From UHGV virus genome UHGV-1354603: a stretch of 47,714 nt of DNA. One strand, given 5' to 3'. The notes beneath the pieces were generated by a model. It was not told where the DNA came from, did no database searches, and saw only the letters and a list, made by a program, of their open reading frames with translations. Shown here one piece after another: positions 3,130-47,714 of this stretch. How positions within the stretch are numbered: position 1 is the first letter of the stretch; each line of letters opens with the position of its first letter. The position numbers and the translations under genes were made by a program. This DNA is from a virus.

Positions 3130-3149
3130 TAACATATTGAGGTGGAATT

Positions 3150-3755: not shown

Positions 3756-3759
3756 CAAT

Positions 3760-3786: not shown

Positions 3787-3818
3787 TTCCCGGAAACCCC
3801 GGTGAAAAGGAGATTGAT

Positions 3819-4709: not shown

Positions 4710-5088
4710 AGTTCAAATCATTGGCAGACTCGGGCGTGACCCCGAACTGCGTTACTCGCAATCCGGCTCTCCCGTTTGTACTTTGAGTGTTGCCACCGAT
4801 GAGGGGTACACCGACCGGGATGGGAAGAAGGTAGACCGTACGGAATGGCACCGTGTAGTGCTCTACTCCAAGGCTGCGGAAAACTGCAACCAGTTCCTTA
4901 AAAAAGGCTCCCTTGTATATGTGGAGGGCAGCCTGCAAACTCGCAAATGGCAAGACCAACAGGGACAAGACCGTTTCTCCACGGAAATCAAGGCGCAGCG
5001 CGTCCAGTTCCTCGACAAAAAGGACGGAGGAAAGCCCAGTTCATCCTTACCCTCTGAATCTTACGGAATGGACAATGTGCCCTTCTAG
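4699..5088 (+). CDS. ssb: Single-stranded DNA-binding protein.
   Basis: OB-fold SSB N-terminus MLNKVQIIGRLGRDPELRYSQSG...WHRVVL; acidic C-terminal tail ending DNVPF. Confidence 0.85.
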   Translation: MLNKVQIIGRLGRDPELRYSQSGSPVCTLSVATDEGYTDRDGKKVDRTEWHRVVLYSKAAENCNQFLKKGSLVYVEGSLQTRKWQDQQGQDRFSTEIKAQRVQFLDKKDGGKPSSSLPSESYGMDNVPF

Positions 5089-5097
5089 GAGGTGAAC

Positions 5098-5595
5098 ATG
5101 CCTACCTTCAACGAAATTCAGCAAGAAATCGCCGGGATGCTTTCTGTTCCCGATGAGGAACTGACTCCGGAACAACGCGAGGCTATGGACGCCTACATGG
5201 ATGAACTCGCCAAAGTCGAAGCCGACAAGGTGGATGGGTTCGGGCAGTTCTTGAAAATCCAGTCGGCACTTGCCGAAGCTTGCAAGGAAGAGGCCAGACG
5301 CCTTGCAGCCAAGGCGAGGACAGCGGAATCACGCCTTGCATGGCTCAAGGAACACTACACCATCGCACTCAGGGGAAACGGCCTCAAGAAAGTATCCGGT
5401 AACGCCTACACAATCAGCGTCCGGGAAACTGAGGCTGTAGCGGTAACGGCGCGGACGGAAGAACTTCCCGAACTGTACCGCCGCACAAAGACGACAGTGG
5501 AGCCAGACAAGCCCACAATCAAAGAAGCCCTCAAAGGCGGATTGACCATCCCCGGCTGCGCTCTGGTGAAGACATACAGCTTGCAAGTACGATAA
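5098..5595 (+). CDS. Siphovirus Gp157-family protein.
   Basis: N-terminal acidic coiled region and characteristic C-terminus KEALKGGLTIPGCALVKTYSLQVR; GGAGG RBS before ATG 5098. Confidence 0.55.
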   Translation: MPTFNEIQQEIAGMLSVPDEELTPEQREAMDAYMDELAKVEADKVDGFGQFLKIQSALAEACKEEARRLAAKARTAESRLAWLKEHYTIALRGNGLKKVSGNAYTISVRETEAVAVTARTEELPELYRRTKTTVEPDKPTIKEALKGGLTIPGCALVKTYSLQVR

Positions 5596-5606
5596 CCACC
5601 CCACGC

Positions 5607-5633
5607 CCCGCCCTCCCCCGGCGGGGCTTTTCA
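5607..5633 (+). terminator. Rho-independent terminator.
   Basis: ccccgcc-ctccccc-ggcgggg + TTTT. Confidence 0.5.
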
Positions 5634-5676
5634 TACCCCAAAACGTGGGCCGCGCATACGAATCACGCGGGATGAT

Positions 5677-5751
5677 ATGACGAAATGGGAATGGGCGTTC
5701 TACGTTACGGTGATAGTTTTCTTTGTTTGGGTGACTTGGCTTGCAAGATGA
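5677..5751 (+). CDS. 24-aa hydrophobic peptide.
   Basis: MTKWEWAFYVTVIVFFVWVTWLAR. Confidence 0.25.
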   Translation: MTKWEWAFYVTVIVFFVWVTWLAR

Positions 5752-5771
5752 AGGGATGACGGGAGGGAGAT

Positions 5772-6098
5772 ATGCTGACGAAACAGGAAAGGAAGTGGCT
5801 GGAGTACCGAAAATTTAGATGCAGCCGTTGCGTACATTATGAAGGCAGCGGCGTTGGAGGCATCTGCTTTTGGTGCGCCGATAGGGAGAAATTTGAAACG
5901 AACGCGTACATACTTGTATCTGACTACCGCGACGCCGCCGAATTCGAGGCGAGGGTGGCGGCAAGGCTAGCTGGAGCATGGGCAATCGGAGAGGACATGT
6001 GCTTTAACAACCACTGTCAACTCTTTGACAAAGACCGTTGTACAGCATGTTACCTCAAGAACGCCCGTATCGCCGTTGAAGAGGAGATGAAAGAGTGA
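5772..6098 (+). CDS. Cys-rich hypothetical protein.
   Basis: ORF with CSRCVHY...CFWC...CTAC; stop overlaps the next start. Confidence 0.5.
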   Translation: MLTKQERKWLEYRKFRCSRCVHYEGSGVGGICFWCADREKFETNAYILVSDYRDAAEFEARVAARLAGAWAIGEDMCFNNHCQLFDKDRCTACYLKNARIAVEEEMKE

Positions 6099-6460
6099 AT
6101 AAATACGATCTGGTTAACTCAGTATGGGCTGTACGCATGGCGTTGCATGATGTCCGCCCTGCGGATTCTCACAGCAATAAAAATCTGAACCGTGCGCATA
6201 AGTTACTGAGGGAGCTTATTGCAACGTATGGAACAGAGAGCGGGGAAGAAAGGGAGGAGATAGACAATGAGGATACCTCCCTTGAATCCATCATGAAGTG
6301 CTCGAAAGAGGCAATTGCGCGGGCGTATATGTGCCGGGAAACGTTTGAGGCACAACAAGAATGTCCTGAAAGATGTCCCAACGGATCGTGTGTGATAGGA
6401 AGAGGTCTTTGTTGGGCCGTAACCCCACAAGACTGGGAAAAGGTGCTGAATGAGCAATAA
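6095..6460 (+). CDS. Hypothetical protein.
   Basis: Translationally coupled ORF. Confidence 0.5.
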   Translation: MNKYDLVNSVWAVRMALHDVRPADSHSNKNLNRAHKLLRELIATYGTESGEEREEIDNEDTSLESIMKCSKEAIARAYMCRETFEAQQECPERCPNGSCVIGRGLCWAVTPQDWEKVLNEQ

Positions 6461-6698
6461 CATGGGGTTCATTTTCTGCGTTATTGCAAATCTATCGGCA
6501 TTGGCAACAATAGCGTGGCTAGGTTTTCTCCTTACCCGTGGTGCAAGTCTGTGGCTTATTGTTGTTATGCTCCTTCTCAGTGTTCATTTTGTTATTCCTG
6601 CAAGCGATATTTTCACTTGCCCGAAATGCGGGCACATCGAAAAGGTTAAAGTATTTAAAACGTATACAAAGACTATAAGTCAGGGAGATGATGGGTGA
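6450..6698 (+). CDS. Two-TM membrane protein with a C-terminal CPKCGH zinc ribbon.
   Basis: Hydrophobic helices followed by CPKCGH. Confidence 0.45.
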   Translation: MSNNMGFIFCVIANLSALATIAWLGFLLTRGASLWLIVVMLLLSVHFVIPASDIFTCPKCGHIEKVKVFKTYTKTISQGDDG

Positions 6699-7051
6699 TG
6701 ACCGCACAAGAATGCCTTGACGAACTGGAACGGCTTAGAAAGGCGGCGGTGCCGGGGCCGTGGGAAGCATGGAGATATAATGCAGCGTTCTTAGGAAAAG
6801 GTGGTCAAGGAATCGTCACTCGGATCTCAACACGCCCATTAGATCCTGATGACGAAGTAATCAAAGTAGCTGATTCACCTGATATTACCGCATCCGACGC
6901 CGCCTACATCGTCGCCGCGTGCAACGCCGTGCCGAGGCTGATCGAGATGGTGCAAGACATGTCTTCCGTCATAGCCGGGATGCCGGGCATGGAATCAACC
7001 CCCGATGAAATTTTGCAGGATTTCTTTGAAGCCACGGAGCCGGAAGAATGA
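6695..7051 (+). CDS. Ead/Ea22-like protein.
   Basis: AAVPGPWEAW motif and AAYIVAACNAVPRLIEM are typical of the lambdoid Ead/Ea22 family. Confidence 0.45.
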   Translation: MMTAQECLDELERLRKAAVPGPWEAWRYNAAFLGKGGQGIVTRISTRPLDPDDEVIKVADSPDITASDAAYIVAACNAVPRLIEMVQDMSSVIAGMPGMESTPDEILQDFFEATEPEE

Positions 7052-7536
7052 TCACCACCGAAGAACTCGCCCGCATCCGAACCGCCGCCATTGGCGACAT
7101 GCTCGGAGACTCCAAGGAACTCGACAAACTTAGTCCGGCGGCTACGGTTTTCAGGCTGTGCCGGGAATTGGAACTAGCTCGGAAACACGCCGTCACCATG
7201 TCAGAAGTGGCAGCCGCAGCATGGGATGGGGAAATCCCGTCGCCGTTGCCCGGTCATACTCACATGACCGAAGAAGAATTTACCGAAAGATATAACTGCC
7301 TTTGGTGTGACGGTTCTGGTCACATCGACGATTGCGATGAAGCAGACAAACAGGTCAAGGCTCAACTGGAACGGCTGGAGCGGGAGGCGGATTGGCTGGC
7401 GACAAAGCTCAATGAGATAGCCAGCCCATGCAGAACCCTACATCCTTGTGAAGGAAGTCCATCTTGCAACTATCCCGACGGAGAACCACGTTGTTGGCGC
7501 GACGTGGCACACAAAGCCGTGGAGGAATGGAGATGA
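7048..7536 (+). CDS. Hypothetical protein.
   Basis: Coupled ORF. Confidence 0.5.
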   Translation: MITTEELARIRTAAIGDMLGDSKELDKLSPAATVFRLCRELELARKHAVTMSEVAAAAWDGEIPSPLPGHTHMTEEEFTERYNCLWCDGSGHIDDCDEADKQVKAQLERLEREADWLATKLNEIASPCRTLHPCEGSPSCNYPDGEPRCWRDVAHKAVEEWR

Positions 7537-7850
7537 ACACCACAGTACAAAAAGTCATTCACGATGGGATGAAAGCGACTGGGATCACACAAACTGAACT
7601 AGCCGTTGTCTTACGCAGCAGAGCGCGTGCTTCCGAGATTATTAATGGGAAAAGGGATCTAAGGAGGACTGAACTGCTTGTACTTTCATATCTGCTCCAT
7701 ATCCCGCTTGAAACGCTGATGCCTCCTCTTAGTGAAGAGGATAAGCTGCATATCGACTCGCTTATTGCTTGGGAGAGAAAACTTCAAGAGACAAGATATA
7801 TAAAAAAAAGAGCTTCTAAACGGAGTAAGAAATCATGTCCGAAGAACTGA
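7527..7850 (+). CDS. HTH (XRE-like) DNA-binding protein.
   Basis: TGITQTELAVVLRSRARASEIINGKRDL. Confidence 0.5.
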   Translation: MEMNTTVQKVIHDGMKATGITQTELAVVLRSRARASEIINGKRDLRRTELLVLSYLLHIPLETLMPPLSEEDKLHIDSLIAWERKLQETRYIKKRASKRSKKSCPKN

Positions 7851-8203
7851 CGTTGCTACCGTTACCGTGCCCGGCGTGTGGGCACCCTGCCGGAATTGCT
7901 AGAGCGAACGGTACAGGCTGTGCGTTCGTCATGTGCCAACATGTGAAATGCGCATTTAGTGGACCCATCAAAACAACGAGTGAAGCCGCCGTTGCCGCAT
8001 GGAACAACCTGCCCCGAGCGCTGGAGTGGACGCGCGATCCACAATTGGGAGCATGGAATTGGTGGAGGGATGAATATAGCCGCATCCCTCGGTACGTCTA
8101 TCAAGATGGAACCGTCGATATCGCTATGCAGATTGACCGTGTATCCTATCAAGATCTTGGTGGACAATGGTGCCCCATACCCGAACCCCGCGAGAGGATA
8201 TGA
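7835..8203 (+). CDS. Lar-family restriction alleviation-like protein.
   Basis: N-terminal CPACGH...C..C zinc ribbon followed by EAAVAAWNN. Confidence 0.5.
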   Translation: MSEELTLLPLPCPACGHPAGIARANGTGCAFVMCQHVKCAFSGPIKTTSEAAVAAWNNLPRALEWTRDPQLGAWNWWRDEYSRIPRYVYQDGTVDIAMQIDRVSYQDLGGQWCPIPEPRERI

Positions 8204-8670
8204 TGGATAGCTGGATGTTGTGGAGCGAACAGCGCCCTACGGATGCCAAGATAGTATACCGCTGGCGTATCCCCGCACAGGAGATTCTGGGGCTGGTTAT
8301 GCAGCCGGAATGGTCGGATAAAATCTTTTCCCCCCTATGCCAACCTGATATTTATTGTCCGAGTTGTGCGAAATGGGACGGGTGGAAATGGCATATACCC
8401 AAAGGACTAGAATGGCGCGTTGCGTCGCCGGATGAGCCGGAAGGGGAAAAGGGAGTCGTATGGGGCGGCCTTGACTTGCTTCCATGCCCATTCACCGGGA
8501 AACTTCCGACTGTAATCTATCATGGTCGATATATCGGGGCTCCACCATACCATGCTGAATGGATTGGCATAGCATCGCATATCATAAGGTCTATCGGATG
8601 GCATAGCGCCAAAGATATGCGCGACGCATGGAATATGAGGTATATACCCGAACCCCGAGAACCGAAGTAG
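8167..8670 (+). CDS. Hypothetical protein.
   Basis: ORF; terminator follows. Confidence 0.5.
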   Translation: MVPHTRTPREDMMDSWMLWSEQRPTDAKIVYRWRIPAQEILGLVMQPEWSDKIFSPLCQPDIYCPSCAKWDGWKWHIPKGLEWRVASPDEPEGEKGVVWGGLDLLPCPFTGKLPTVIYHGRYIGAPPYHAEWIGIASHIIRSIGWHSAKDMRDAWNMRYIPEPREPK

Positions 8671-8671
8671 C

Positions 8672-8697
8672 CCCGAAAGGGGCTTTTCCTTTTCTGG
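8672..8697 (+). terminator. Rho-independent terminator.
   Basis: gcccc-gaaa-ggggc + T-rich run. Confidence 0.45.
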
Positions 8698-8705
8698 AGG
8701 AGAAA

Positions 8706-9200
8706 ATGCGAAGACCCATCAACCCCGTAATACCGTACCCGCACGAGGCCATCCAGCACACCCGCTGTGTTCTGGCCCTGTCCATGATCACCGTGGCGAT
8801 TTCTTTCTTGAAGCCGGAAACGCTGGCCCTGCTTGGCGACCTCGGAAAGCAGGTCGAGAAGGTCAACCGCTGGATCGACCGATGCGCGGACGACACGCAG
8901 AAGCGCAGGCTGTCTGCTGGCGCAAAGCGAGATCTCGACAGGAGGTTCCATATCCTTGCCGGGCACGTCGGGGACATTCAGGCCGCTGCCGGCGACGCTT
9001 CCCGTTGGACGCAATGGGGCGCCGGGATGTGGGCCGGGCTGACCTTCCTTGAGGACTGCCGGAACACCTGCCCCGCCTACTTCCGGGGCCTTCACTGGCA
9101 CAACCTGCTCAAAACGCTGACCACGCTGTGCAATGCGCTCGAAAAGGTCGACCCGCAGATCGCTGAGATCGGGACGCGGGTGTACGAGCGGGCCGCGTAG
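8706..9200 (+). CDS. Hypothetical protein.
   Basis: GGAGGAG RBS before ATG 8706 within ORF 8628..9200. Confidence 0.5.
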   Translation: MRRPINPVIPYPHEAIQHTRCVLALSMITVAISFLKPETLALLGDLGKQVEKVNRWIDRCADDTQKRRLSAGAKRDLDRRFHILAGHVGDIQAAAGDASRWTQWGAGMWAGLTFLEDCRNTCPAYFRGLHWHNLLKTLTTLCNALEKVDPQIAEIGTRVYERAA

Positions 9201-9231
9201 ATGAAAACACCTTAAACGACAAGAGGCATAT

Positions 9232-10017
9232 ATGATCGAAATCGCTTTGAAGAACATCAACGGAAAGGACGTTCCCGCGGTGACCTCGTTGCAGGTGGCG
9301 GAGAGCTTTGAGAAGGAACACAAAAACGTGCTGCGGGATATTGAAGCAATCTTGCCGCAAGTACCTGAAAAGTTCGTAAAGCTCAATTTTGAGCTCTACG
9401 AGTATCCCATTGAAACGGGTATCGGAACACGAATGGCCAAGTCCTACCTTCTCAGCAAGGACGCCTTCACGCTCTTGACTATGGGCTACACAGGCGAAAA
9501 GGCTATGGCCTTCAAAGTTGCCTACATCGCCCGGTTCAACGAGATGGAAAAGGCCCTCCAAGCAAACGCCCCAACCTCTCTCCCAGAGGCATTACGCGCA
9601 TATGCCAACATGCTTGAAGAGAATGAGCTTATCCGCCGCCAACGGGACGAGGCCATCCGCACCAAAGCATGGATCAGCGACAAAAAGACAGCTACCGCGA
9701 TGGCCACCGCTTCCGTCGCCGTCCGTAAGGCCGCAGCCCTTGAGGACGAACTCGGACGCGGGAAGCGCTACAAGTCCGTAAAGGCCATTCCGTGGTTGCT
9801 GACTGAATTCGTTGAAAGCAAGGGGATGTATTCAGTCGTCGGGAAAGCCCTCAAGCGCATGTCTACCGATCTTGGTTACTCCATAGAGAAAATCGCCACC
9901 CCAGAATACCCGGAAGGTATCAACGCCTACCATGTGGACGTGATTTCCGCATTCCGGTGCGAGCTCGCTCAGAACCCCGGTATGCTCGACAGGTACAGAA
10001 AAAGGCGGGCCGCGTAG
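9232..10017 (+). CDS. Phage regulatory protein Rha (antirepressor-like).
   Basis: Rha N-terminal domain VTSLQVAESFEKEHKNVLRDIE... Confidence 0.7.
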   Translation: MIEIALKNINGKDVPAVTSLQVAESFEKEHKNVLRDIEAILPQVPEKFVKLNFELYEYPIETGIGTRMAKSYLLSKDAFTLLTMGYTGEKAMAFKVAYIARFNEMEKALQANAPTSLPEALRAYANMLEENELIRRQRDEAIRTKAWISDKKTATAMATASVAVRKAAALEDELGRGKRYKSVKAIPWLLTEFVESKGMYSVVGKALKRMSTDLGYSIEKIATPEYPEGINAYHVDVISAFRCELAQNPGMLDRYRKRRAA

Positions 10018-10028
10018 GAGGAAAGAAA

Positions 10029-10328
10029 ATGGAGCCAACACTTTTGACTACAGAACAGGCATCCGAACTCATGGGAATGGGGATTACACGTTCACTCAAT
10101 TTGCTACGCGCCTATGGCGTGCAACCTGTCGATCTAGGACGTGGACGCGGAAACGGCTTGCGCTGGCATCGTCGGGCCGTTATGACGGTGATCGACACAT
10201 TACATGCTGAGGCTCAGGCAAAGGCAGGAGTTCCAAGGCGACGAAGACAGACCAAAACATCAGGGTGCGTCATCGGAAAATCCGCCAAGGAACTTTTAGC
10301 AGAGTTCAATATGGGGGCCGTCCAGTAG
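10029..10328 (+). CDS. xis: Putative excisionase / AlpA-like DNA-binding protein.
   Basis: HTH + GLRWHRRAV pattern; strong RBS; immediately upstream of int. Confidence 0.5.
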   Translation: MEPTLLTTEQASELMGMGITRSLNLLRAYGVQPVDLGRGRGNGLRWHRRAVMTVIDTLHAEAQAKAGVPRRRRQTKTSGCVIGKSAKELLAEFNMGAVQ

Positions 10329-10366
10329 CAGCTGGAGCGGCCTCCTTTGCTCAGGAGCTATTCAGT

Positions 10367-11461
10367 ATGGCTATCAGACAGAGGAAAGGCCGTAGAAAGC
10401 CGTGGGAAGTGTACTGGAACAACCCGTTCACCCTCAAGCGAGAATCACTTTACGTCGAAACGGAGGAGGAAGCAAAGAAGCAAGATGCCCTCAAGAAGTA
10501 TCAGCTTAAGTATGAAAGAGATTCATTCCGTAAGGACGAAGTTTCTGAGACGAATCAGGAACACACATTTGAGTCCGTATATTATTTATTTCTAAAAGAA
10601 AAACACTTTTCGGAAAAGGCATTAAACAGACATTTGGCAAATATGAAACCGGCTATGCCATTCATGTGTGATATACCCATTCATGAGATTGATAGTACAA
10701 AACTTAAAACCCTCGTCGAGTATTTTCTATCACGCAGAATCAAAACAGCAACTATCAGGCGTTATATAAGTCCGGTTATTTCCATAATTAGATGGGCATA
10801 TCAAAATGAACTCATCAGAGAAATGCCAAGAATCCCAACTTTGCCGCATGTTGAATATGAACATTTTGTACCACCGACACAACATGAAATTGCCTTGATA
10901 TTCGCACACGCCAATGAGCATGTGCGGCGCGTGATCATACTTGGTTCACAAATGGGTATTAGAGTAGGTCCATCAGAGCTTTTCAGTTTAAAATGGTCCG
11001 ATGTAGACATTGAAAATAGTGTGATTCATCTACATGCTGCAAAGAAAAATAGAAAAGAACCCATCCGTGATATCCCGATAAGAAAAACATTGATAGATGA
11101 ATTGCGGTCGTGGCGTGATGCTGATAAAGAATTAGGAGTCAATCAAGTTATCCATTTCAGAGGAAAGCCCATTAGAACCATACATGAGGGTTGGAAAGCC
11201 GCTCTCAGGCGTGCTGGAATATCAAGAAAGATACGTCCCTACGATCTAAGACATGCCTTTGCTACCGAAGCTATCGCCGCAGGTGCAGACATCGGGACGG
11301 TTGCAAAGCTCATGGGGCACGCCAGCCTTACAATGGTTTTGAAACACTATCAGCACGTCCTCAACTCTCAAAAAATTGCCGCAATTGAGGCTATCCCTGA
11401 ACCTAAATATGTGGCAGAAAATATGTGGCAACTTAAAGATGGATGTTCAGTTCGTCAATAA
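10367..11461 (+). CDS. int: Tyrosine integrase.
   Basis: R...HxxR...Y catalytic box: IRPYDLRHAFAT...GHASLTMVLKHYQHV. Confidence 0.9.
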   Translation: MAIRQRKGRRKPWEVYWNNPFTLKRESLYVETEEEAKKQDALKKYQLKYERDSFRKDEVSETNQEHTFESVYYLFLKEKHFSEKALNRHLANMKPAMPFMCDIPIHEIDSTKLKTLVEYFLSRRIKTATIRRYISPVISIIRWAYQNELIREMPRIPTLPHVEYEHFVPPTQHEIALIFAHANEHVRRVIILGSQMGIRVGPSELFSLKWSDVDIENSVIHLHAAKKNRKEPIRDIPIRKTLIDELRSWRDADKELGVNQVIHFRGKPIRTIHEGWKAALRRAGISRKIRPYDLRHAFATEAIAAGADIGTVAKLMGHASLTMVLKHYQHVLNSQKIAAIEAIPEPKYVAENMWQLKDGCSVRQ

Positions 11462-11675
11462 CCAATGGTTAACAAACAACTTTTACACACTGTTGTTTTA
11501 AGCATGATTCCCATGTACAGGGCATTGTTTACATATTAACATATAGAATTTATTATATTAAGCCTCAGCAAAATGTGTCAAAATGTGGCAAAACTACTCT
11601 AAATATGTGTCAGAATATGTGTCCAAAAAAATACCCCTCCTCGGTTCGCGCCGGGAGGGGGATTTTTTTGTGTCT
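11462..11675. other. Putative attP region.
   Basis: AT-rich segment between convergent int and tail genes, with repeated AAATGTGTCA-like motifs at 11571, 11581, 11601 and 11613. Confidence 0.4.
11634..11669. terminator. Bidirectional rho-independent terminator.
   Basis: cccctcc-tcggttcgcgccgg-gagggg with an A-run upstream and a T7 run downstream. Confidence 0.6.
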
Positions 11676-11906
11676 TCAATCAGACTTTTTCGCCACGAAT
11701 CGGATCTCATCTCGGTGCTCAGGCAGCCACCTGCATTTGTTCAGGCACCACCACGGAGTGATGATGAACCGACCATCAGCTTTCGCTTTCCTGTCGGGAT
11801 GAGCACCCGACACGGCACAGTCCAGAGAACACAGCATCAGGGCTTGAACGCGCTCACCGTGTGGGCAACGCAAGTTTTCCTCTTCTTCGGGCATGGGTAG
11901 TGGCAT
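11676..11906 (-). CDS. Cys-rich hypothetical protein; last gene of the late operon.
   Basis: AAGGAGGAA RBS 6 nt before the ATG. Confidence 0.45.
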   Translation of the reverse strand: MPLPMPEEEENLRCPHGERVQALMLCSLDCAVSGAHPDRKAKADGRFIITPWWCLNKCRWLPEHRDEIRFVAKKSD

Positions 11907-11958
11907 GACCTTCCTCCTTGTTTCTAAAGAGTCTAGCCATGCCTACGATTTTTGCAAA

Positions 11959-12405
11959 TTACGGCTCTACAGGCCACGGACACGCCGGATCATCCGGCCC
12001 ATTCCACGGAAATCCCGGCTGTTGCGGCAAATCGCGGAGCGCTTGCCGATATGCCTTGATCTCTTCAAGCTTGTCAGTATCAAGCGGATAGTCTGGTATG
12101 ACAAGATAATCTGTTGCAATAATGCGCCTGTCACGCTCGGCGCGTACGCTAGCCGCGAGGTCTTCGACTGTCGGTACATAAGCCACATACGGCGGCTCTT
12201 CGGTCACGCATTCCGGGCATTGCTCAGTGCGCCGCAAAACAGCGGCGTACAGATCCGCGTACTCCGACATATCTTTTGTTACGCAAAACGGGCACCACTC
12301 ATCGTCGAGCAGTACTGAGACGACAAGCGAACCGTCACGCTCGCGATGAATGATGGTTGTAACGTCAAACTCATATCCGTTGCATTTCATTCTTGTATCC
12401 ATCAC
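11959..12405 (-). CDS. Tail fiber assembly protein (DUF4376-like C-terminus).
   Basis: C-terminus EIKAYRQALRDLPQQPGFPW...P. Confidence 0.55.
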   Translation of the reverse strand: MMDTRMKCNGYEFDVTTIIHRERDGSLVVSVLLDDEWCPFCVTKDMSEYADLYAAVLRRTEQCPECVTEEPPYVAYVPTVEDLAASVRAERDRRIIATDYLVIPDYPLDTDKLEEIKAYRQALRDLPQQPGFPWNGPDDPACPWPVEP

Positions 12406-39512: not shown

Positions 39513-40922
39513 TCACAAATCGTTTTCCTGTACCGCAGGACGTCCGGCCCATGCTTCACCCTCGGTAAACTCAGAAAAAGCTTTTTCGAAACGCAAGAAC
39601 GATGCACCTGTTCCCGTGCTGCGGGATTTCCCGACTATGCATTTCACGTCTGGTCTGGCATTCGCACGATCCAAGTCACGAGTGTGCAGCAAAATGATGA
39701 TGTCCGCGTCCTGCTCAATCGCTCCAGACTCTCTGAGATCGGAAACCCGGGGCTCTCGCTTGCCCTCTTCGCTTGAACGATTGAGCTGGGAAAGCAGGAG
39801 CACAGGGACTTGCAGATCCATAGCCATTTGTTTGAAGGCTCTGGACATTTCTGCAATTTCACGCTCCCTGCTGGTGCTCTTCTCGTCGGGATGCAAAAGC
39901 TGGAGATAGTCCACCACGATAAGCCCCAAGTCTTTAATGCCCCGCGCCAGCCTGCGGACTTCGCGGGGGCACATGGGCACAGTTGACTTTTCCACGATGG
40001 ACAAGGGAAGGGCTTCAAGCTGCCCTATGGCGGCGTCAATGGCTCCACGGATATGCGGCGTGACGCCCATCCCTTCACGGAAAAACCGTCCGTCGATACG
40101 CCCTACGCGGGAGATGAGACGATGCCCAAGGCTTTCGTCGCTCATCTCGCATGAGACAAAGAGCACACCCATTCCGCGCCATGCGGCACCCAACGCCACA
40201 TTTGCGGCTAAGGCCGTCTTTCCAAGGCCGGGACGAGCGGCAAGGACGATCAATTCCCCCGGCATGAATCCCCCACGCAAAACGCTGTTCAAGCTTTTCC
40301 ACGGAGTCTGAATCTTGCGCAGCGATTGCGGATTATCGAGCTTTGCCCGAATGCGGCCCATGAGGTTCGACATAGTTACGGCTTCCTGAATCCCTCCCGA
40401 AGCTTCAACAAGCTTTCGGGCACGGTCAGCGATGTATTCGGAGTCCACGCCGTAAACCGATGCTTCCGCAGCAATTTCGAGCAATCCGGCATGGAGTTCC
40501 GCCCGGCGATGTTCATCGGCAAGCTTTCGTGCCAAACTCTCGGCATGGCCTTTCAGCCCCCACGCGGATGTAGAAAGTTCAGCCATGCGCGCCATATCCG
40601 GGGCGGGCCAACGTTCAGGAGCTTTCGCCCAACGGGATTGCATCTGCGTTGCCAACGCGGTGAGGTTGGGACGTTGACCGGACTGCCGGAGCAAATCGAG
40701 AGCCACGGCAAGCGGCGCAGCTTCCGGCGTCACAAAACAACCTGCGGGGCAAATATCGAGTACATCCCCAAGCAAATGGGCATCCCGGTTCATGCCCGAG
40801 AGAGTCGCGGCAATGACGCTGGACTCAAGCTGTGCACGGGCTTCCGAGGCCATGACGGGCTTTGGCGCGGGAGCGTTCTGCCTGCGGGCCATGATGCCGC
40901 GTTCAAGCGTCTGGACTGCCAT
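39513..40922 (-). CDS. dnaB: Replicative DNA helicase DnaB.
   Basis: Walker A GARPGLGKTA, Walker B LIVVDYLQL, SQLNR motif; GGGAGGTG RBS before ATG 40922. Confidence 0.9.
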   Translation of the reverse strand: MAVQTLERGIMARRQNAPAPKPVMASEARAQLESSVIAATLSGMNRDAHLLGDVLDICPAGCFVTPEAAPLAVALDLLRQSGQRPNLTALATQMQSRWAKAPERWPAPDMARMAELSTSAWGLKGHAESLARKLADEHRRAELHAGLLEIAAEASVYGVDSEYIADRARKLVEASGGIQEAVTMSNLMGRIRAKLDNPQSLRKIQTPWKSLNSVLRGGFMPGELIVLAARPGLGKTALAANVALGAAWRGMGVLFVSCEMSDESLGHRLISRVGRIDGRFFREGMGVTPHIRGAIDAAIGQLEALPLSIVEKSTVPMCPREVRRLARGIKDLGLIVVDYLQLLHPDEKSTSREREIAEMSRAFKQMAMDLQVPVLLLSQLNRSSEEGKREPRVSDLRESGAIEQDADIIILLHTRDLDRANARPDVKCIVGKSRSTGTGASFLRFEKAFSEFTEGEAWAGRPAVQENDL

Positions 40923-40923
40923 T

Positions 40924-41880
40924 TCAAGCCACCTCCCGATTGTCGTACTTGCCTTCAATCACGCCCATAAATCCGCTTGGGGACATGAGCTTGTCGAAAT
41001 CCACCCGGTACACTGTCCCATCTCGAAAAGCCTTTTTGCCAGTGAGAAAATCAGACCGGGAAGCCCTTGCAAACAGCCGCCGAAAGTAATCCAGCCTTTC
41101 GGCGGCGGAGGTGTCCCTGTTCAGCATTCGCAGCCTCTCTCCGGCCTCTGTCCATCTGGCCTTCATTGCCCCCTTGCGCTTTGCGTTCACGATTGCAACC
41201 CGGGGATGTTCCGGGAAAGCCTCGTGATACAGGCCGACAATGGCGTCATAGGGGCAGGCTGGCGAGGCATGGGCCTGCCGCTTTTCGCCGGGCTGGGAGG
41301 CGTCGGCGGCTTCGGCGTCGACAACTACCCCGTCAGGGGTAGTATCTTCTTGAGTATTTATACGAAGAGCAGGAGAAGGAGCAGGAGTAGAACGATCCGT
41401 ACTACGTTCGTTCAACTCCGTATCTCCGTTCGTACTACGCCGTATATACGGCGTACCATCGGCGTACATACGATACTCTTCCTGCGTAAGTCCCTTCACT
41501 CCATCATCACGCATAGATTTAGCTATCTCGGGGAATTTTCTTGCAAAACGAGAAAGCCTTGCGGCATCGCTACGGGTATCGGCTTCACTTGCCCACAGGT
41601 TATGTACCTGCCAATCGTGCAGGGTGTACCCGTCAGGGCTTTCGTCAATCCACATACCAAGGCAGGTGTCGAAAAACTTCTGCTCCTCTCCCTGCCAGTC
41701 GGCGGCAAGCTCTACATCTTCCCAGTCCATGCCGGAAAGATTCCCGTCCGGGCGATTCACAGCAGCCCACGCCCACAGGATTTGAAGCGAGCGTATCCCC
41801 TCAAGTCCAAGACGGCGGGCGGTCTTCTTTGTCTTCGGGTGTTGCCAAAATCCAACTGAAAGGCGAAAATCGGTATTCAT
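40924..41880 (-). CDS. Putative replication initiation / replisome organizer protein.
   Basis: C-terminal conserved phage domain ...YFRRLFARASRSDFLTGK...FMGVIEGKYDNR; directly upstream of dnaB. Confidence 0.45.
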   Translation of the reverse strand: MNTDFRLSVGFWQHPKTKKTARRLGLEGIRSLQILWAWAAVNRPDGNLSGMDWEDVELAADWQGEEQKFFDTCLGMWIDESPDGYTLHDWQVHNLWASEADTRSDAARLSRFARKFPEIAKSMRDDGVKGLTQEEYRMYADGTPYIRRSTNGDTELNERSTDRSTPAPSPALRINTQEDTTPDGVVVDAEAADASQPGEKRQAHASPACPYDAIVGLYHEAFPEHPRVAIVNAKRKGAMKARWTEAGERLRMLNRDTSAAERLDYFRRLFARASRSDFLTGKKAFRDGTVYRVDFDKLMSPSGFMGVIEGKYDNREVA

Positions 41881-42399: not shown

Positions 42400-42824
42400 T
42401 CCATGCCCCCGGCTCTTCTTCCGTGAAATTCGTATGAGGGAAGCCCCTCAGCGTCGGAGCCTTTGCGCAGCTTTTCCCAGCATTGAGGGCATCTGTAGTC
42501 AGTGATCCACCGCCCACAGCTCTTGCCGGCAACTCCAGCGCACAGGTGCTTGCCCTCGCGAGGGTCTGCCTTGTCCGCACTTTTTTTTGCGAGATACGCT
42601 TCCCGGCTCAAGCCGCTTTGCGCTGCGCTGGCACAGATGCGGGAGCAAAAACGCGGGTTCTTGCGGTTGAGGGGATTGAACTCCTTTCCGCAGCATTCGC
42701 ACTTGGCCTCTTTTTTCTGGGTGGCGGCAAGCTGGCACTCCTTTGAGCAGTACCTTGCCGAATGCTCACGGCTGGGAGCCACCTCAAACATCCGGCCGCA
42801 CTGTTGGCAAATCAGGATCGGCAT
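42387..42824 (-). CDS. Cys-rich multi-zinc-ribbon protein.
   Basis: CQQCG...CSKEC...CECCG...CSRIC...CPQC. Confidence 0.5.
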   Translation of the reverse strand: MPILICQQCGRMFEVAPSREHSARYCSKECQLAATQKKEAKCECCGKEFNPLNRKNPRFCSRICASAAQSGLSREAYLAKKSADKADPREGKHLCAGVAGKSCGRWITDYRCPQCWEKLRKGSDAEGLPSYEFHGRRAGGMEWDW

Positions 42825-43264
42825 TCTCCCTTCCTCCCTTCATGCTGCACAGCCGTCTCCGTTTCCATCAGGTCGATGATCAGGGCCCCCAACAGCTTTG
42901 CCCGCACCTTCTGCGGCGCATTCCTACGTATGGCCCTTTGCAGGTCTGCAAGACGCTCCACATCATCGAGCTGTTCGCCTTCCACGCCCTTGTCAGGTTC
43001 CGCACACATCGGAAGAAGCGAAAATCCGAGATCCGCCGCAAGAAGCTGGAGGGCGGACACGTCGCCCGTTTGATGCATGATGAACGCAGCCTGTTCCAAC
43101 CCGAGCTTGACGGACGTGCGGTCGGCGTAGGGATTGAGGACATTGCCGAGACTCGACGGAGCCATATCCATTTCCGCCGCCATTGCTCGGACGCCGCCGG
43201 GATACTTCTTCACCGCCGTCTGTACGGCTTCGATAACGTGTTCAAGTGTGGGGATTGTCATCAT
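42812..43264 (-). CDS. Putative CII-like phage regulatory protein.
   Basis: Position downstream of cro; 150-aa protein with HTH-like segment; family assignment is tentative. Confidence 0.35.
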   Translation of the reverse strand: MMTIPTLEHVIEAVQTAVKKYPGGVRAMAAEMDMAPSSLGNVLNPYADRTSVKLGLEQAAFIMHQTGDVSALQLLAADLGFSLLPMCAEPDKGVEGEQLDDVERLADLQRAIRRNAPQKVRAKLLGALIIDLMETETAVQHEGRKGECRS

Positions 43265-43451
43265 TTCACCGTTCATTCTGTTTGTGTGCCGCCCTATTCT
43301 GGGGGGCATGGAACTTGTTCACCTGCTCATCACCCGACGCGGCCCCGTGTGGCGCGTCCGCATCCTGTCCTGTGGCGTCATCCGCTGGAGGGCATACCGC
43401 GCCGCGGAGTACCCGACACCCGAGGCCGTGGTCCGGCGATGCGTGGAAGGA

Positions 43452-43595: not shown

Positions 43596-43741
43596 TCACC
43601 TCTTCGCCAGTCTTCTCTTGAGCCACATGACAAGATCAAAATCGAAAACTTTCTTGAAAAACACACAAAGTCCTGCGAATGCGGTCAGCCAGAGAGCTAT
43701 GAAAAGAACCAATGCTATGGAGGAAATGAACAGGCTAGCCA
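43596..43741 (-). CDS. 48-aa hydrophobic peptide.
   Basis: MASLFISSIALVLFIALWLTAFAGLCVFF... Confidence 0.25.
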
Positions 43742-43962
43742 TCCGTTTCTCCTTGTCCGGTGGGAGTGCTGGGGGCGGCTGTAAGCCGCTCTTCATTTCT
43801 AACTAAAAAGTCCAGCAATTTATCATAGGCGCTCTGTCGCCTTTTTGGAGCAGACAAGAGCCGACACAAGGTAACGGGATGGATGCCTACGGCTTTGGCA
43901 AGGGCTACTTGCGTCCATCCTCTCTTCTTCATCAGTTCTTTTGCAGCGTATTCGATATTCAT
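43735..43962 (-). CDS. cro: Cro/Ner-like HTH regulator.
   Basis: MNIEYAAKELMKKRGWTQVALAKAVGIHPVTLCRLL; divergent from the repressor gene. Confidence 0.6.
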   Translation of the reverse strand: MNIEYAAKELMKKRGWTQVALAKAVGIHPVTLCRLLSAPKRRQSAYDKLLDFLVRNEERLTAAPSTPTGQGETDG

Positions 43963-44054
43963 GTGGAAATATTAGCTCATTCGCTATTCAATGGTCAAGC
44001 GAATTTGCAAATTAAAAAATTGCTTTTATTAGCGCGTATGCTAATGGTGTAACC
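43963..44054. promoter_or_regulatory. Divergent cI/cro control region with operators O1 and O2 and a 12-bp palindrome.
   Basis: O1 ATTAGCtcattcGCTATT (43971-43988); O2 ATTAGCgcgtatGCTAAT (44028-44045); AATTTGCAAATT (44003-44014); pR-like -35 TTGACC / -10 TAATAT on the - strand. Confidence 0.55.
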
Positions 44055-44801
44055 ATGGGTAAAACAGACTGGATCATTAAATTTTTTGAGTCCAAAATTG
44101 GGCACGGGAAGGAATTCGCCACACGAGTTGATATGGCGAGATTTTTAGGGTTGTCCCCAACGCAACAGACAAAATTGTTCAATTTTTTGAAAGGTTCAGA
44201 CACGCAATATAAGGCCGTCCTAGATTGGTTTGAACGACTTGGGGGCAAGTTCGAATCGGAGACTACACCTTCTAAAAACGTCTGCTTCATCGATGCGCGT
44301 GTGGCCCCCGCAGGCAATGCTCTCCCCCCTCCCCCGGATGAAGACTACCTCGCCGTTCCCCTTGTGGAAGAAGTTGGCGCGGGGCCCGGCATCATTCCAC
44401 AAAATGAACTCATCTCGTGGTTCCTCGTCTGGCGTCACCAGCGGGCCATTCAACACAAGCGTGACCTCATTGCCGTCATGCTGGGCAAACACTCAACGTC
44501 TATGGTTCCCACGCTCAAGCCACAAGACATTGTGCTTGTAGACCGACAAGATAAAGACGTGATGAACTTCAAAGGTAGGATCATGCTTGTCCTCGATCCT
44601 TTCGACGGTAGCGGGAAAATCAAGCGTGTAGCGGCAGAAAACCAGCCGAAAAAGCGCGACTATCGCATCACCTACTATTCGGATAACGCCGCCGAGAATC
44701 CCCCCGAGGTCTACAGCCTTATGGAAGACTTCGATGGCGACTGGAACAAGTCCATCGTCGGGCGCGTCGTATGGGCGTGGAGTGACGTGAGCTGCAAATG
44801 A
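44055..44801 (+). CDS. cI: CI-like repressor with a C-terminal S24 (LexA-like) peptidase domain.
   Basis: C-terminal MVPTLKPQDIVLVDRQ...GRIMLV...GKIKRV Ser/Lys dyad region; N-terminal DNA-binding part. Confidence 0.8.
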   Translation: MGKTDWIIKFFESKIGHGKEFATRVDMARFLGLSPTQQTKLFNFLKGSDTQYKAVLDWFERLGGKFESETTPSKNVCFIDARVAPAGNALPPPPDEDYLAVPLVEEVGAGPGIIPQNELISWFLVWRHQRAIQHKRDLIAVMLGKHSTSMVPTLKPQDIVLVDRQDKDVMNFKGRIMLVLDPFDGSGKIKRVAAENQPKKRDYRITYYSDNAAENPPEVYSLMEDFDGDWNKSIVGRVVWAWSDVSCK

Positions 44802-44833
44802 AAATCCCCGCCGGAGCGGGGAAGGAGAAAGAA

Positions 44834-45478
44834 ATGGAGCCACAAATTATTAGATTACAATTAGCACTTATTTTCCAAGATATCATTAGAAATCCTAATC
44901 TATTTATGGAAGAATTAACGAGTGAATTAGACTTATTCAAAGATTCTAATCCAAATTTTATTATGCATCCTAGCACAATCCCTCCAGTCGTTCCTATTGG
45001 GACACTTATGGGTACTAATAAAATGACAAGTCTATCTGCAACAGGAGAACGGATTGATTTTATTTGCTATAATGTTCCAAACATAGATAAAAATGTAAAA
45101 GATGTGTACGACAAAAATGTTCCAATCATTATTGACAAAGTATTGTCTAAAAAAAGTATAGGTCGTATCGGTTTTATATCGACAATATTTAGAGAAGATA
45201 AAAATCCAAATAATTATATAGAAAAAAATTATACTAATCATTCTATAATAAAAGATACGACAGAGATTTTTGTTAGATACAACAATCCATATAAATACAA
45301 AAATATACTTATAAACAAATTAACAAATATTGAAAGCCCATTTAAACCATTTCCAGATAACGATACAATAGGATGGTCAATAACAAAGGACATCAATACT
45401 TCTTTTAGAGATGATGGACTTTCAAAAAAATTTGTATTGGATCTGTATTCAAAAATAAAAGATTATTTATGTTCGTAG
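44834..45478 (+). CDS. AT-rich (about 29% GC) protein A of a cI-linked two-gene cassette; candidate defence sensor.
   Basis: AAGGAG RBS 7 nt upstream; GC hairpin at 44806-44821 between cI and the gene; no family recognised. Confidence 0.6.
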   Translation: MEPQIIRLQLALIFQDIIRNPNLFMEELTSELDLFKDSNPNFIMHPSTIPPVVPIGTLMGTNKMTSLSATGERIDFICYNVPNIDKNVKDVYDKNVPIIIDKVLSKKSIGRIGFISTIFREDKNPNNYIEKNYTNHSIIKDTTEIFVRYNNPYKYKNILINKLTNIESPFKPFPDNDTIGWSITKDINTSFRDDGLSKKFVLDLYSKIKDYLCS

Positions 45479-45485
45479 GTGAAAC

Positions 45486-46004
45486 ATGCTAAAAAGTAAT
45501 TTTCCGCAGTTTCCACCAGACCCTAATATTCTATTTGGAAAAGAGCAAAAATCTTCAACCAGTTCAGGTCAAGAACAAATATCATACCAAAAAACTTCTG
45601 CGTCTACTGCCTCAGTGGGTAATGAGTATCAATTTTTTGTTTATTTATCCAACTTGCATAATGCAATTATTCCAAGAATGAATGAGTATGAAAAAAATCA
45701 AGAAAATTTAGAATTAATTCTACACAAAGAAAAAGCGCTAGAAGAAGCAACACGAAGACTATTATCCATAAATATTATTTTAGGAATGATACTCCCAGCG
45801 GTTATTTTATTAATATTTTTCCTTTTTTGTTGGGTACATGCACCAGAAAATGTCGAATTATTCTTTGAAAAATATAAATGGATCTACTCTGGCTTTACAC
45901 TAGTTGGATTGATTGCTTTTATTAATCCAATATGGAACATTCACCAATACAGTAAAAGACTAGATTCTATTGAAAAACAATTAAAAATCAACGGTAACAA
46001 CTAG
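45486..46004 (+). CDS. AT-rich protein B: N-terminal Q/S-rich region, coiled coil, two C-terminal TM helices; candidate membrane effector.
   Basis: AGGTGA RBS; ILGMILPAVILLIFFLFCWV and FTLVGLIAFINPIW helices; terminator follows. Confidence 0.6.
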   Translation: MLKSNFPQFPPDPNILFGKEQKSSTSSGQEQISYQKTSASTASVGNEYQFFVYLSNLHNAIIPRMNEYEKNQENLELILHKEKALEEATRRLLSINIILGMILPAVILLIFFLFCWVHAPENVELFFEKYKWIYSGFTLVGLIAFINPIWNIHQYSKRLDSIEKQLKINGNN

Positions 46005-46099
46005 ATAAAAACACCAAAAAAGTCCCCAACAACAAAATAAAAATAAAAAACTTAAAAAATATTCAATAAATTTTCCCATAGGTCTTTTGGTACCTCCTC

Positions 46100-46124
46100 G
46101 CCCCTCCTCGTGAGGGGCTTTTTT
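46100..46124 (+). terminator. Rho-independent terminator.
   Basis: cccctc-ctcgt-gagggg + T6. Confidence 0.55.
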
Positions 46125-46198
46125 GTGTCCTGCCGGGCGTGACCGCCGAGCCTTCGTGGTGTCGGCGGTTATTGTTTTATCTTGTTATTATTGAATAC

Positions 46199-46239
46199 GC
46201 AAATTTACATTGACTCAATATTAGCGAATTTGCTATTAT
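46199..46239 (+). promoter_or_regulatory. pL-like promoter carrying a third copy of the CI operator.
   Basis: -35 TTGACT at 46210-46215, 18-nt spacer, -10 TATTAT at 46234-46239; O3 ATTAGCgaatttGCTATT (46220-46237); flanking GCAAATT/AATTTGC inverted repeat. Confidence 0.55.
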
Positions 46240-46581
46240 GGTTTCACAACGAACGGGGAAGGCGAACCCGGCGCGGCAACGGCCCGCCGAAAGCTGGAAC
46301 CGAACGGAGGAAGCCCCAACAAGTACGAGCACGGCAAGCGCAAGCCTTTGGGAGCGGGAAGCACGCGACGGCAGGAAATGGGGTGATGTGAAGACAGGCC
46401 GCGAGGGGACGGCGGGCCGAGCAAAGGCGCGGAAAGGCGACTGGGCGGCAACATGGGTTCCGAGACAAGCCCGCAACAAAACTCGAGACAACAATTTTCG
46501 TATCCCACCGCCAGCGCATGACGTTGGCGGGAAGGATGCGGAAGCATCCAGACTGAGCGTGGCTGGGCAGGGCGCGGCATT

Positions 46582-46611
46582 GCAAGGCAAGGCAAGGCAA
46601 GGCAAGGCGAG
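46582..46611. repeat. (GCAAG)5-GCGAG pentanucleotide microsatellite.
   Basis: Direct reading. Confidence 0.85.
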
Positions 46612-46615
46612 GCAG

Positions 46616-46749
46616 CGGTCGTATGAAAGGGACAGCGGATAGGCCGTTGTCCCGAACCGTGCGGGAACTCGCCCTGTACGGCAAGGGAAACCTTCCGGGA
46701 TTGGCCCGGTCGTATGAAAGGGACAGCGGATAGGCCGTTGTCCCGAACC
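46616..46749. repeat. Two identical 43-nt direct repeats (46616-46658 and 46707-46749), each containing gggaca...tgtccc hairpin potential.
   Basis: Direct reading: cggtcgtatgaaagggacagcggataggccgttgtcccgaacc appears twice. Confidence 0.85.
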
Positions 46750-46834
46750 ATGCGACGATGTGCCAGCATGGGGACGCGCGCCCGGCGGGGATTGGCTCCG
46801 CCGGGTGGTTTTTGACCTGAAAAGGATGTGACGA

Positions 46835-47611
46835 ATGAACAAATTGCAGATTTTCAAGAATGCCGAGTTTGGGGAAGTCCGGGTGGTCGAGCATGAAGGC
46901 CAGCCGTGGTTTGTGGCGAGCGACGTTGCGAAGGCGTTGGGATATGAAAAGCCCAACAACGCCGTCAATGAGCATTGCAAAAAAGTGAATAAATTCAGTT
47001 ACCCTAATTCGGGGCAGTTGCAGCCCTATAACATCATCCCCGAGTCCGACGTGTACCGCCTCGTCATGCGGTCGAACCTTCCAAAGGCCATAGAATTTCA
47101 GGATTGGATTTGCGAAGAGGTCATTCCTTCTCTTCGCAAGACTGGCGGCTACATGCTGACGAAAGCAGACGACACGCCGGAATCTATCATGGCCCGCGCC
47201 GTACTCGTCGCTCAAGAAACCATCGAGCGATTGAAGAGCCACACCGAAAAATTGGAATCCCGCGTTGAAGAGATGCGCCCGAAGGAGTTGTTCGCAGATT
47301 CCGTCTCGGCGTCCGAATCTTCCATCCTCGTTGGCCAGCTTGCGGCACTGCTCAAACAAAACGGCGTCAACATCGGCCAGAACCGCCTTTTCGAGCGTCT
47401 TCGCGATGACGGGTTCCTCATCAAATTCGGTTCACGTCGGAACTGTCCCACGCAGCGGGCAATGGACATGGGCCTTTTCGAGTTGAAGGAGCGCGTCATC
47501 AACAACCCCGACGGGACCGTCCGCATCACGCTCACGACCAAGGTCACGGGCAAGGGTCAGGTCTACTTCGTCAACAGGTACATTGGAGAGGCTCGCGAGG
47601 TCGCGGCATGA
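46835..47611 (+). CDS. Antirepressor (Bro-N + KilA-C-like), paralog 2.
   Basis: FGEVRVVEHEGQPWFVASDVAKALGYEKPNNAVNEHCKKVNKFSY; C-terminal region similar to the 25792..26622 product. Confidence 0.75.
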   Translation: MNKLQIFKNAEFGEVRVVEHEGQPWFVASDVAKALGYEKPNNAVNEHCKKVNKFSYPNSGQLQPYNIIPESDVYRLVMRSNLPKAIEFQDWICEEVIPSLRKTGGYMLTKADDTPESIMARAVLVAQETIERLKSHTEKLESRVEEMRPKELFADSVSASESSILVGQLAALLKQNGVNIGQNRLFERLRDDGFLIKFGSRRNCPTQRAMDMGLFELKERVINNPDGTVRITLTTKVTGKGQVYFVNRYIGEAREVAA

Positions 47612-47714
47612 AGCCTTATACGCTCTTCAGGAAGTTCCCCGGAAAAGAAACCGCAGCCATTCTTTCACAAGACAGATGCGAACTGGACAATAGTTTTGCT
47701 GGCTTCATAGACGA
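47608..47714 (+). CDS. Partial ORF (5' part) with ATGA coupling to the antirepressor; continues in frame into bases 2..328 if the sequence is circular.
   Basis: ATG overlaps the antirepressor stop; no stop before the window end; the frame matches ORF 2..328 across the junction. Confidence 0.4.
   Translation, partial: MKPYTLFRKFPGKETAAILSQDRCELDNSFAGFID

Follow-up and report, generated by a model that had tools for sequence, protein, structure and literature searches.

Does a single repressor govern both the lysis-lysogeny switch and a distant early promoter in the virus genome UHGV-1354603? The question is raised by positions 43,963 to 46,239 of the 47,714-nucleotide stretch analyzed here (the window, whose numbering is used throughout). 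In this region a preliminary description made from the sequence reported three copies of an 18-bp dyad, ATTAGC-N6-GCTAAT: one (O1) over the -10 element of the promoter of a cro-like gene, one (O2) just upstream of a cI-like repressor gene and one (O3) within a strong promoter 2.2 kb away. It proposed that one CI-like repressor acts at both places, the distant promoter resembling pL of phage lambda and driving a leader RNA, an antirepressor gene and early-left genes. Our analysis supports this proposal by gene order, by promoter geometry and, above all, by covariation of the dyads with the DNA-binding domain of the repressor among related phages, and the sites are very probably operators of the phage repressor at both promoters. 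Judged from its sequence, the phage is temperate and lambda-like, and this locus is its immunity region, with a textbook OR/OL design.

Re-reading of the sequence and a motif search reproduced the letters and positions of all three dyads (Table 1). O2 is a perfect palindrome; it lies just ahead of cI, as described, its end separated from the ATG by 9 bp. When the motif search was extended to the whole 47.7 kb with up to two mismatches to ATTAGC-N6-GCTAAT, O1, O2 and O3 were the only matches. When at most one mismatch is allowed, the window has three matches where chance predicts 0.06-0.08, and in 1000 first-order Markov simulations the count never exceeded one; since the pattern was read off the same sites on which it was tested, these statistics are optimistic and serve as a necessary check only. 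The comparative evidence presented below is free of this circularity and carries the weight.

The sequence suggests five operator sites rather than three, with one auxiliary site 33 bp upstream of O3 and another, more tentative one between O1 and O2. The former (O4), measured between centres, is located at about -50 relative to the transcription start of pL. The latter contains one good half-site (ATTTGC), and resembles O4 (ATTATTGAATACGCAAAT). Its centre is 32 bp away from O1, 25 bp away from O2 and approximately 43.5 bp upstream of the cI ATG; its core, ATTTGCAAAT, is kept in the related locus L007. The spacing between main and auxiliary sites, 32-33 bp, is about three helical turns. These weaker sites also account for a second palindromic motif, AATTTGC/GCAAATT, which had been noted at both regions. 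Its presence there is real (44002-08, 44007-13, 46199-205 and 46227-33), but it does not hold up as a separate motif: the 7-mer occurs nine times in the whole window against 12 expected, so it is not enriched, and four of the nine copies fall in the two control regions. The motif is most readily interpreted as a variant half-site, ATTTGC/GCAAAT, belonging to the two auxiliary operators, plus a chance overlap inside O3.

The promoter scan found TTGACT-18-TATTAT at the distant site, a TG-extended match that was the best sigma-70-like promoter of the region, with a predicted start at about 46246; its scaffold is kept in more than 20 related loci. The scan agrees with a strong promoter at 46.2 kb and with the overlap of O1 and the -10 element of the cro promoter (-35 TTGACC at 43998-43993, -10 TAATAT at 43974-43969). 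Both promoters share one build: after the -35 hexamer come 4 nt and the 18-bp operator, and the -10 hexamer is made up of the final four operator bases and two more. The layout is TTGACC-attg-AATAGCGAATGAGCTAAT-AT at pR and TTGACT-caat-ATTAGCGAATTTGCTATT-AT at pL, so O1 and O3 are in identical register. O3 had been placed exactly between the hexamers; it does lie in the spacer, but it also covers the first four bases of the -10.

Evidence for shared control comes from related loci. Where the repressor is 97% identical (L001-L006) or 87% identical (L007-L011), metagenomic contigs keep O1, O2 and O3 at equivalent places, together with the fourth site just upstream of the pL -35, which exists in every immunity type and of which the relatives carry better copies (ATTATCGAATATGCAAAT, ATTATCTAATATGCAAAT, AATAGCaaattcGCAATT). 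These loci differ completely in the cargo between cI and pL, which lie 1.0 to 2.2 kb apart. The pL module, comprising an upstream terminator hairpin, the -35, the spacer, the -10 and a leader starting with TTCAC(G/A)ACGAACGGGGAAGGCGAA, recurs in 17 IMG/VR contigs and in further loci, with about ten different sequences in the spacer and in the position upstream of the -35. Among repressors of the window's family, types share 97-99% identity over the C-terminal 150 amino acids and only 16-32% over the N-terminal 70 amino acids. To each type of N-terminal domain there corresponds a separate dyad, found at the switch as well as at pL: ATTAGC-N6-GCTAAT in type A (the window), TACC-N4-GGTA in type B (L012, L062, L066 and L084; three sites ahead of cI and two at pL), TACA-N2-TGTA in type C (L017, L072 and L083) and TACCA-N2-TGGTA in type E and the related type K (L063, L067 and L079). 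Two types with unrelated repressors on the same scaffold, F and I, carry ATNCCAAATGGNAT and ATGCCA-N2-TGGCAT, respectively, again at both places, and a slightly diverged type A' (L090) has drifted type A dyads at both loci. The joint change of the dyad at switch and pL with the N-terminal domain of the repressor is decisive evidence in support of shared control, as far as sequences can tell. It also implies that recombination occurred within the repressor gene and that a second patch, roughly 60 bp at pL, was replaced in concert.

Geometry is retained as well. Sites at the switch are spaced by 31-32 and then 25-26 bp, types B and E having clear middle sites, and those at pL by 33-34 bp across types; in types A, B and E, 42.5-43.5 bp separate the centre of the middle site from the cI ATG downstream of it. 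The type A cro gene is 94% identical in L001 and 77% identical in L007, and other types carry different cro genes. Comparison of the window with L012, L017 and L063 places the swap junction in the repressor near residues 72-80, just ahead of a conserved VCF(V/I)DA. Column-wise conservation of the pL scaffold was left unused because one-nucleotide shifts in -35 register (spacers of 17 or 18 nt) blurred the columns. Other sources of relatives were rejected: blastn against an annotated phage collection returned weak matches to the antirepressor gene and no relatives of the control region, and 39 of 40 18-mer leader matches in genome contigs (L018-L057 except L025) have neither the promoter nor the leader of the phage around them and seem to be chance hits, the one genuine match being L025.

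Several observations weigh against a common repressor of the kind proposed, besides the optimism of the site statistics. A crude cross matrix compared every pL spacer with every switch by best 14-mer match. Types A, B, C and I scored highest on their own switch, and type F tied with the related type I; however, type E did slightly better on the switch of the related type F than on its own, and the match between pL and switch of type J (L073) was not significant. Types E, F and I cross-match through related CCA..TGG cores. The middle switch site of the window is degenerate, two overlapping sequences being candidates for it (Table 1), and the putative cI promoter was not called by the promoter scan. 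The best palindrome, O2, sits over that promoter, the opposite of lambda, in which OR3 is the weakest CI site. The Pfam S24 model scores 16.4 bits on the repressor, under the cut-off. Finally, cro is swapped along with the N-terminal domain of cI, and covariation cannot separate CI sites from Cro sites.

This last point is what allows the sites to be viewed as mainly Cro operators, with Cro acting at pL, for example by damping early-left expression in lytic growth, and CI at the switch only. Exchange of cro together with the cI N-terminal domain and the operators fits such a view equally well. To our knowledge, however, CI and Cro use the same operators in every lambdoid phage that has been studied (lambda, 434, P22), and a prophage must silence the recombination, excision and antirepressor genes driven by pL, a task for which only the lysogenic repressor is present. 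We therefore consider a Cro-only role at pL improbable; the two readings do not exclude each other, and by analogy Cro probably shares the operator sites with CI. Because pR and pL are built alike (-35, 4 nt, 18 bp, -10) within AT-rich DNA, their likeness might instead reflect shared promoter ancestry or composition, pR and pL being duplicated cassettes and the dyads passengers. Yet the half-sites are kept while the 6-bp spacers within the dyads differ (tcattc, gcgtat, gaattt), O2 is a perfect palindrome, and in other types the scaffold bears entirely different dyads that match their own switch, which makes passive duplication very improbable. A host factor, LexA or another global regulator, would be a third candidate for binding the dyads, as in Gifsy phages, N15 and coliphage 186, given that the first open reading frame (ORF) after pL belongs to the antirepressor family, a class under LexA control in several phages (PMC3121763). 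But the operator at the antirepressor promoter belongs to the family of the phage's own switch and changes with repressor type, whereas host clade and scaffold remain constant, and most relatives keep the operators without an antirepressor gene. Operators that change with the phage's own DNA-binding domain cannot be explained by a host factor any more than by passive duplication, and we regard host control as hardly likely at all.

A different kind of alternative accepts the operators and shifts the emphasis to the RNA: control by the repressor would be real but secondary for the antirepressor, and the leader RNA with its terminator would be the decisive gate, through attenuation or put/nut-like antitermination. 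In the window, as in L001, the leader ends in a 12-bp hairpin directly followed by a T-run (46779-46813), immediately ahead of the antirepressor gene. In 11 other relatives, covering most immunity types, a conserved hairpin is followed by a separate canonical intrinsic terminator ahead of the first ORF, and the leader is structured with covarying stems. Against this, neither an antiterminator protein nor a ligand was identified, the leader matched no Rfam family at the gathering threshold or at E values up to 1, and there is no c4/sar-like complementarity to the start region of the antirepressor gene: the best duplex between leader and start region (-18.8 kcal/mol) is weaker than the mean for shuffled sequences (-24.4 kcal/mol). 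An RNA gate of this kind seems to us possible, if somewhat doubtful. It bears on one part of the original proposal, namely that the distant promoter drives the leader, the antirepressor and the early-left genes. Gene order agrees with it; the terminator-like hairpin between leader and antirepressor qualifies it, because derepression of pL may not suffice for antirepressor expression and may by itself yield mainly leader RNA unless termination is overcome.

Under control by a common CI-like repressor, dimers of its N-terminal helical domain would recognize ATTAGC-N6-GCTAAT at three promoters built alike, each with an operator in its spacer that contributes its final four bases to the beginning of the -10: O1 at pR, O2 at the putative cI promoter and O3 at pL. 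In the lysogen, repressor bound at O1 and O3, aided by the auxiliary sites and possibly by cooperativity or looping, would exclude RNA polymerase from both early promoters. Replication and late genes would be silenced through pR, and the leader RNA, the antirepressor and the recombination and integration genes through pL. The auxiliary site about 43 bp upstream of the cI start occupies the position whence lambda CI at OR2 activates pRM, and it may activate the cI promoter in the same manner; O2 could provide negative autoregulation of cI or be a preferred site of Cro. Upon DNA damage, RecA-stimulated self-cleavage at Ala109-Gly110 would derepress both promoters at once.

Table 1. Positions of the sites, promoters, genes and RNA elements of the immunity region and its surroundings in the 47,714-nucleotide window
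Feature	Position	Strand	Sequence	Remarks
O1 operator	43971-43988		ATTAGCTCATTCGCTATT / ATTAGCtcattcGCTATT	Within spacer and -10 of cro promoter
O2 operator	44028-44045		ATTAGCGCGTATGCTAAT / ATTAGCgcgtatGCTAAT	Spacer and -10 of putative cI promoter
O3 operator	46220-46237		ATTAGCGAATTTGCTATT / ATTAGCgaatttGCTATT	pL spacer and first 4 nt of -10
O4 auxiliary operator of pL	46187-46204		ATTATTGAATACGCAAAT	3 mismatches to dyad
Tentative auxiliary operator of switch	44003-44020		ATTTTTTAATTTGCAAAT	Between O1 and O2; read towards cro (reverse complement)
Alternative middle site of switch	43996-44013		TCAAGCGAATTTGCAAAT	Overlaps 44003-44020
pR-like promoter of cro	43998-43969	minus	TTGACC-18-TAATAT	Consensus scan 9/12
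pL-like promoter	46210-46239	plus	TTGACT-18-TATTAT	TG-extended; consensus scan 10/12
Putative weak pRM-like cI promoter	44020-44047	plus	TTGCTT, 16 nt, TAATGG	Predicted from sequence
Tandem terminators upstream of pL	46100-46126 and 46142-46179	plus		Terminator scan and sequence
cI-like repressor gene	44055-44801	plus		248 amino acids; N-terminal four-helix domain, linker, LexA/S24-type C-terminal domain
cro-like gene	43735-43962	minus		75 amino acids, helix-turn-helix; Pfam HTH_3 E=1.5e-5; PHROG transcriptional regulator
cII-like gene	42812-43309	minus		PF06892
DnaB helicase gene	39513-40958	minus		
Cargo genes	44834-45478 and 45486-46004	plus		About 28% G+C; place of lambda rexA/rexB
Structured non-coding leader RNA of pL transcript	46246-46815	plus		About 570 nt
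45-nt hairpin motif, two copies	46619-46663 and 46710-46754	plus		
Antirepressor-family gene	46835-47611	plus		Bro-N and KilAC/ANT domains; first ORF past leader
Integrase gene	10265-11461	plus		

The product of the cI-like gene is a LexA/CI-type repressor, judging by its structural model and homologues. The AlphaFold2 model, built with 33 homologues (predicted local distance difference test score 84.6), has four N-terminal helices, a disordered linker at residues 70-82 and a beta-rich C-terminal domain, and the closest solved structures are LexA (3k2z), the cleavage fragment of lambda repressor (2ho0, and 8gmu with RecA) and UmuD'. Among the 33 homologues Ala109-Gly110 and Ser149 are invariant and Lys190 is nearly so, which suggests that the repressor is probably SOS-cleavable. 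The protein matches PHROG repressor families, and its N-terminal domain was not detected by the helix-turn-helix models of Pfam, a difference from lambda.

All of the switch sites, O1, the middle site and O2, are held in the 92 bp between cro and cI. In the window there is no Shine-Dalgarno sequence at cro (43962) or at cI (44055). Since, in addition, the cro -10 ends 6 nt ahead of the ATG, which puts the predicted transcription start at the A of the ATG, the cro mRNA would be leaderless; both the cro and the cI mRNAs probably are, the putative cI promoter being positioned for initiation at the cI ATG or beside it. Types B, E and K likewise lack a Shine-Dalgarno sequence at cI, and in them the end of the cI-proximal operator forms a -10-like hexamer, set to start transcription at the ATG. 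At the other end of the region, two tandem terminators, GCCCCTCCTCGTGAGGGGC followed by a T-run and a hairpin ACCGCCGA...TCGGCGGT followed by TATTGTTTT, shield pL from read-through of the cI operon; both are kept upstream of pL in relatives.

Downstream of pL lies the structured leader, whose 5' part consists of two domains, D1 (46247-46309) and D2 (46313-46384), joined by an exposed GGAGGAA linker. The whole leader folds better than shuffled sequences (z = -3.9). Thirteen leader variants folded singly show a common architecture, a D1 stacked hairpin domain followed by GGAGGAA and D2, and the closing stem of D2 covaries (GCCCCA/UGGGGU, GCCAAUUCC/GGAGUUGGU, GCCAGCC/GGCUGGC). Single folds were more informative here than RNAalifold on a MAFFT alignment of the 5' leader, which returned almost no structure with the variable helices misaligned. 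A 45-nt hairpin motif, present twice in the window, is found as a single copy in the leaders of 15 other loci and nowhere else in 274 kb. It consists of a stem P1 (CGYAUG/CAUGCG), an internal loop (AAA/GAAC) and a 9-bp stem P2 with compensatory changes; in its alignment, which was fitted to the structure model and thus favours structure, 98.7% of cells are paired and five pairs are changed on both sides, against 20-49% in slid controls. A leader-like structured element occurs downstream of pL only, in one copy per locus, and none follows pR. A coding role was considered for a 134-amino-acid, Arg/Lys-rich ORF (46238-46642) and rejected, since the ATG falls within the -10, ahead of where transcription is predicted to start, and indels between relatives break the frame. 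The long ORFs of the leader are a by-product of its purine-rich strand. The window leader also has five CAAGG repeats followed by CGAGG at 46583-46612, which are not in the aligned relatives L001 and L065.

A bolder proposal is that leaders of 400-600 nt, with D1 and D2, GGAGGAA, the 45-nt motif, the terminal hairpin and the intrinsic terminator, represent a new class of phage cis-regulatory RNA that gates the early-left operon and the antirepressor, by sensing attenuation or by processive antitermination of the put kind. We hold it only tentatively and consider it rather unlikely; if true, it would add an RNA-based second checkpoint downstream of the CI operators. The pL leader of some relatives also contains a tRNA-like gene (L012 4918-5006, L017 7196-7284, L067 4971-5059), for which ARAGORN returned "tRNA-???" and an anticodon of 2 bases. 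On visual inspection it has the shape of a class II tRNA: the variable arm is long, the 3' end carries CCA, and a GAAA tetraloop takes the place of the anticodon loop. In L070, ordinary tRNA-Ser and tRNA-Gln genes are located downstream of pL.

The antirepressor-family gene has matches to Pfam ANT (4.6e-31) and Bro-N (1.2e-25) and to the PHROG anti-repressor Ant (1e-85). It is found at the same position in L001 and is absent from most relatives; by this distribution it is optional cargo in the phage group. In L007, a gene with Rha and ANT (KilAC) domains (4098-4877) is part of the rightward, cro-side operon, and a cII-like gene follows the pL leader. This arrangement implies that antirepressor-family genes move between the two early operons. 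The promoter scan called no antisense promoter between 46240 and 47000. On the pairing, promoter and operator evidence, the locus appears to be neither an RNA-controlled antirepressor locus of the P1, P22 or N15 type nor a LexA-controlled one. It resembles P22 immI (Mnt/Arc, sar RNA), P1 immI (c4 RNA), N15 immA (CA RNA) and the Ant/Tum systems of Gifsy, N15 and 186 in having an ANT/Bro-N gene behind a long non-coding leader, with expression of that gene linked to the choice between lysis and lysogeny. The antirepressors of N15 and 186, too, are LexA-controlled. Unlike in those systems, the promoter here has the CI-type operators of the phage itself rather than Mnt/Arc or LexA sites, and the antirepressor is optional.

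Similarity to lambda extends to the divergent cI and cro genes around a three-site operator region, the S24 self-cleaving C-terminal domain of the repressor, a further cluster of operators from one sequence family at pL (some 2.2 kb off, compared with about 2.4 kb in lambda) and the order cI, accessory genes, terminator, pL, with the pL operon ending at integrase. The operator about 43 bp upstream of the probably leaderless cI start corresponds to OR2 at pRM. Differences are equally clear: pL has two sites 33 bp apart, whereas lambda OL has three adjacent ones; the 18-bp ATTAGC-N6-GCTAAT dyad is unrelated to the lambda 17-mers, with the best palindrome being cI-proximal; and cro also appears leaderless, while in lambda only cI transcribed from pRM is. 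As in the heteroimmune phages lambda, 434, 21 and P22, repressor specificity, cro and both operator sets swap as a module between homologous flanks. Unlike in those lambdoids, the C-terminal domain of the repressor (97-99% identity), the pL scaffold and the leader are kept between types, and the variable parts are two patches, one spanning cro, OR and the cI N-terminal domain and the other consisting of approximately 60 bp of pL. The leader recalls lambda nutL/N and HK022 put as a conserved structured RNA just past pL and upstream of the first terminator, but it differs from them in having no sequence or family match, no copy after pR and no N-like protein. Neither an N-like gene nor a recognizable nut match was found; the long structured leader and its terminator stand in that place.

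Our literature searches found no description of switches or immunity regions of Bilophila phages. With this locus, the OR/OL logic of lambda is extended to the phages of a gut pathobiont that produces sulfide, Bilophila wadsworthia. In terms of general phage biology such an operator arrangement is to be expected; the most novel of the remaining threads is the leader RNA, which is unclassified and, like the swap series, of moderate interest. The series is an unusually clean natural one for studying specificity exchange at two non-adjacent DNA patches, and it offers candidate orthogonal repressor/promoter pairs for genetic tools in Desulfovibrionaceae. The model further predicts that DNA damage derepresses an antirepressor-family gene, which could reinforce induction or cross-induce other prophages.

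The cro-like gene is the first of the early operon that leads toward the replication genes, rightward in the lambda sense and on the minus strand here, with a replication initiator-like ORF listed between the cII-like and DnaB genes on the same strand. The two cargo genes between cI and pL, one of which (45486-46004) carries hydrophobic segments, are without a match in Pfam, PADLOC or PHROGs and may form a cassette for superinfection exclusion or defence; relatives have other cargo in their place (a nucleoside deoxyribosyltransferase, SDH-protease/NfeD-like genes and others). The plus-strand genes at the start of the window, encoding a pentapeptide-repeat protein, Gp157, Rha and integrase, are the same genes that follow pL in relatives. 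This makes it probable that the window is a complete phage genome in circular permutation, its pL operon spanning the window ends (1-12318 and 46835-47714) and ending at int. The sequence of the pL leader is present in Bilophila wadsworthia ATCC 49260 (L025); annotated homologues of the repressor come from Desulfovibrionaceae, the family of Bilophila, which is the host clade.

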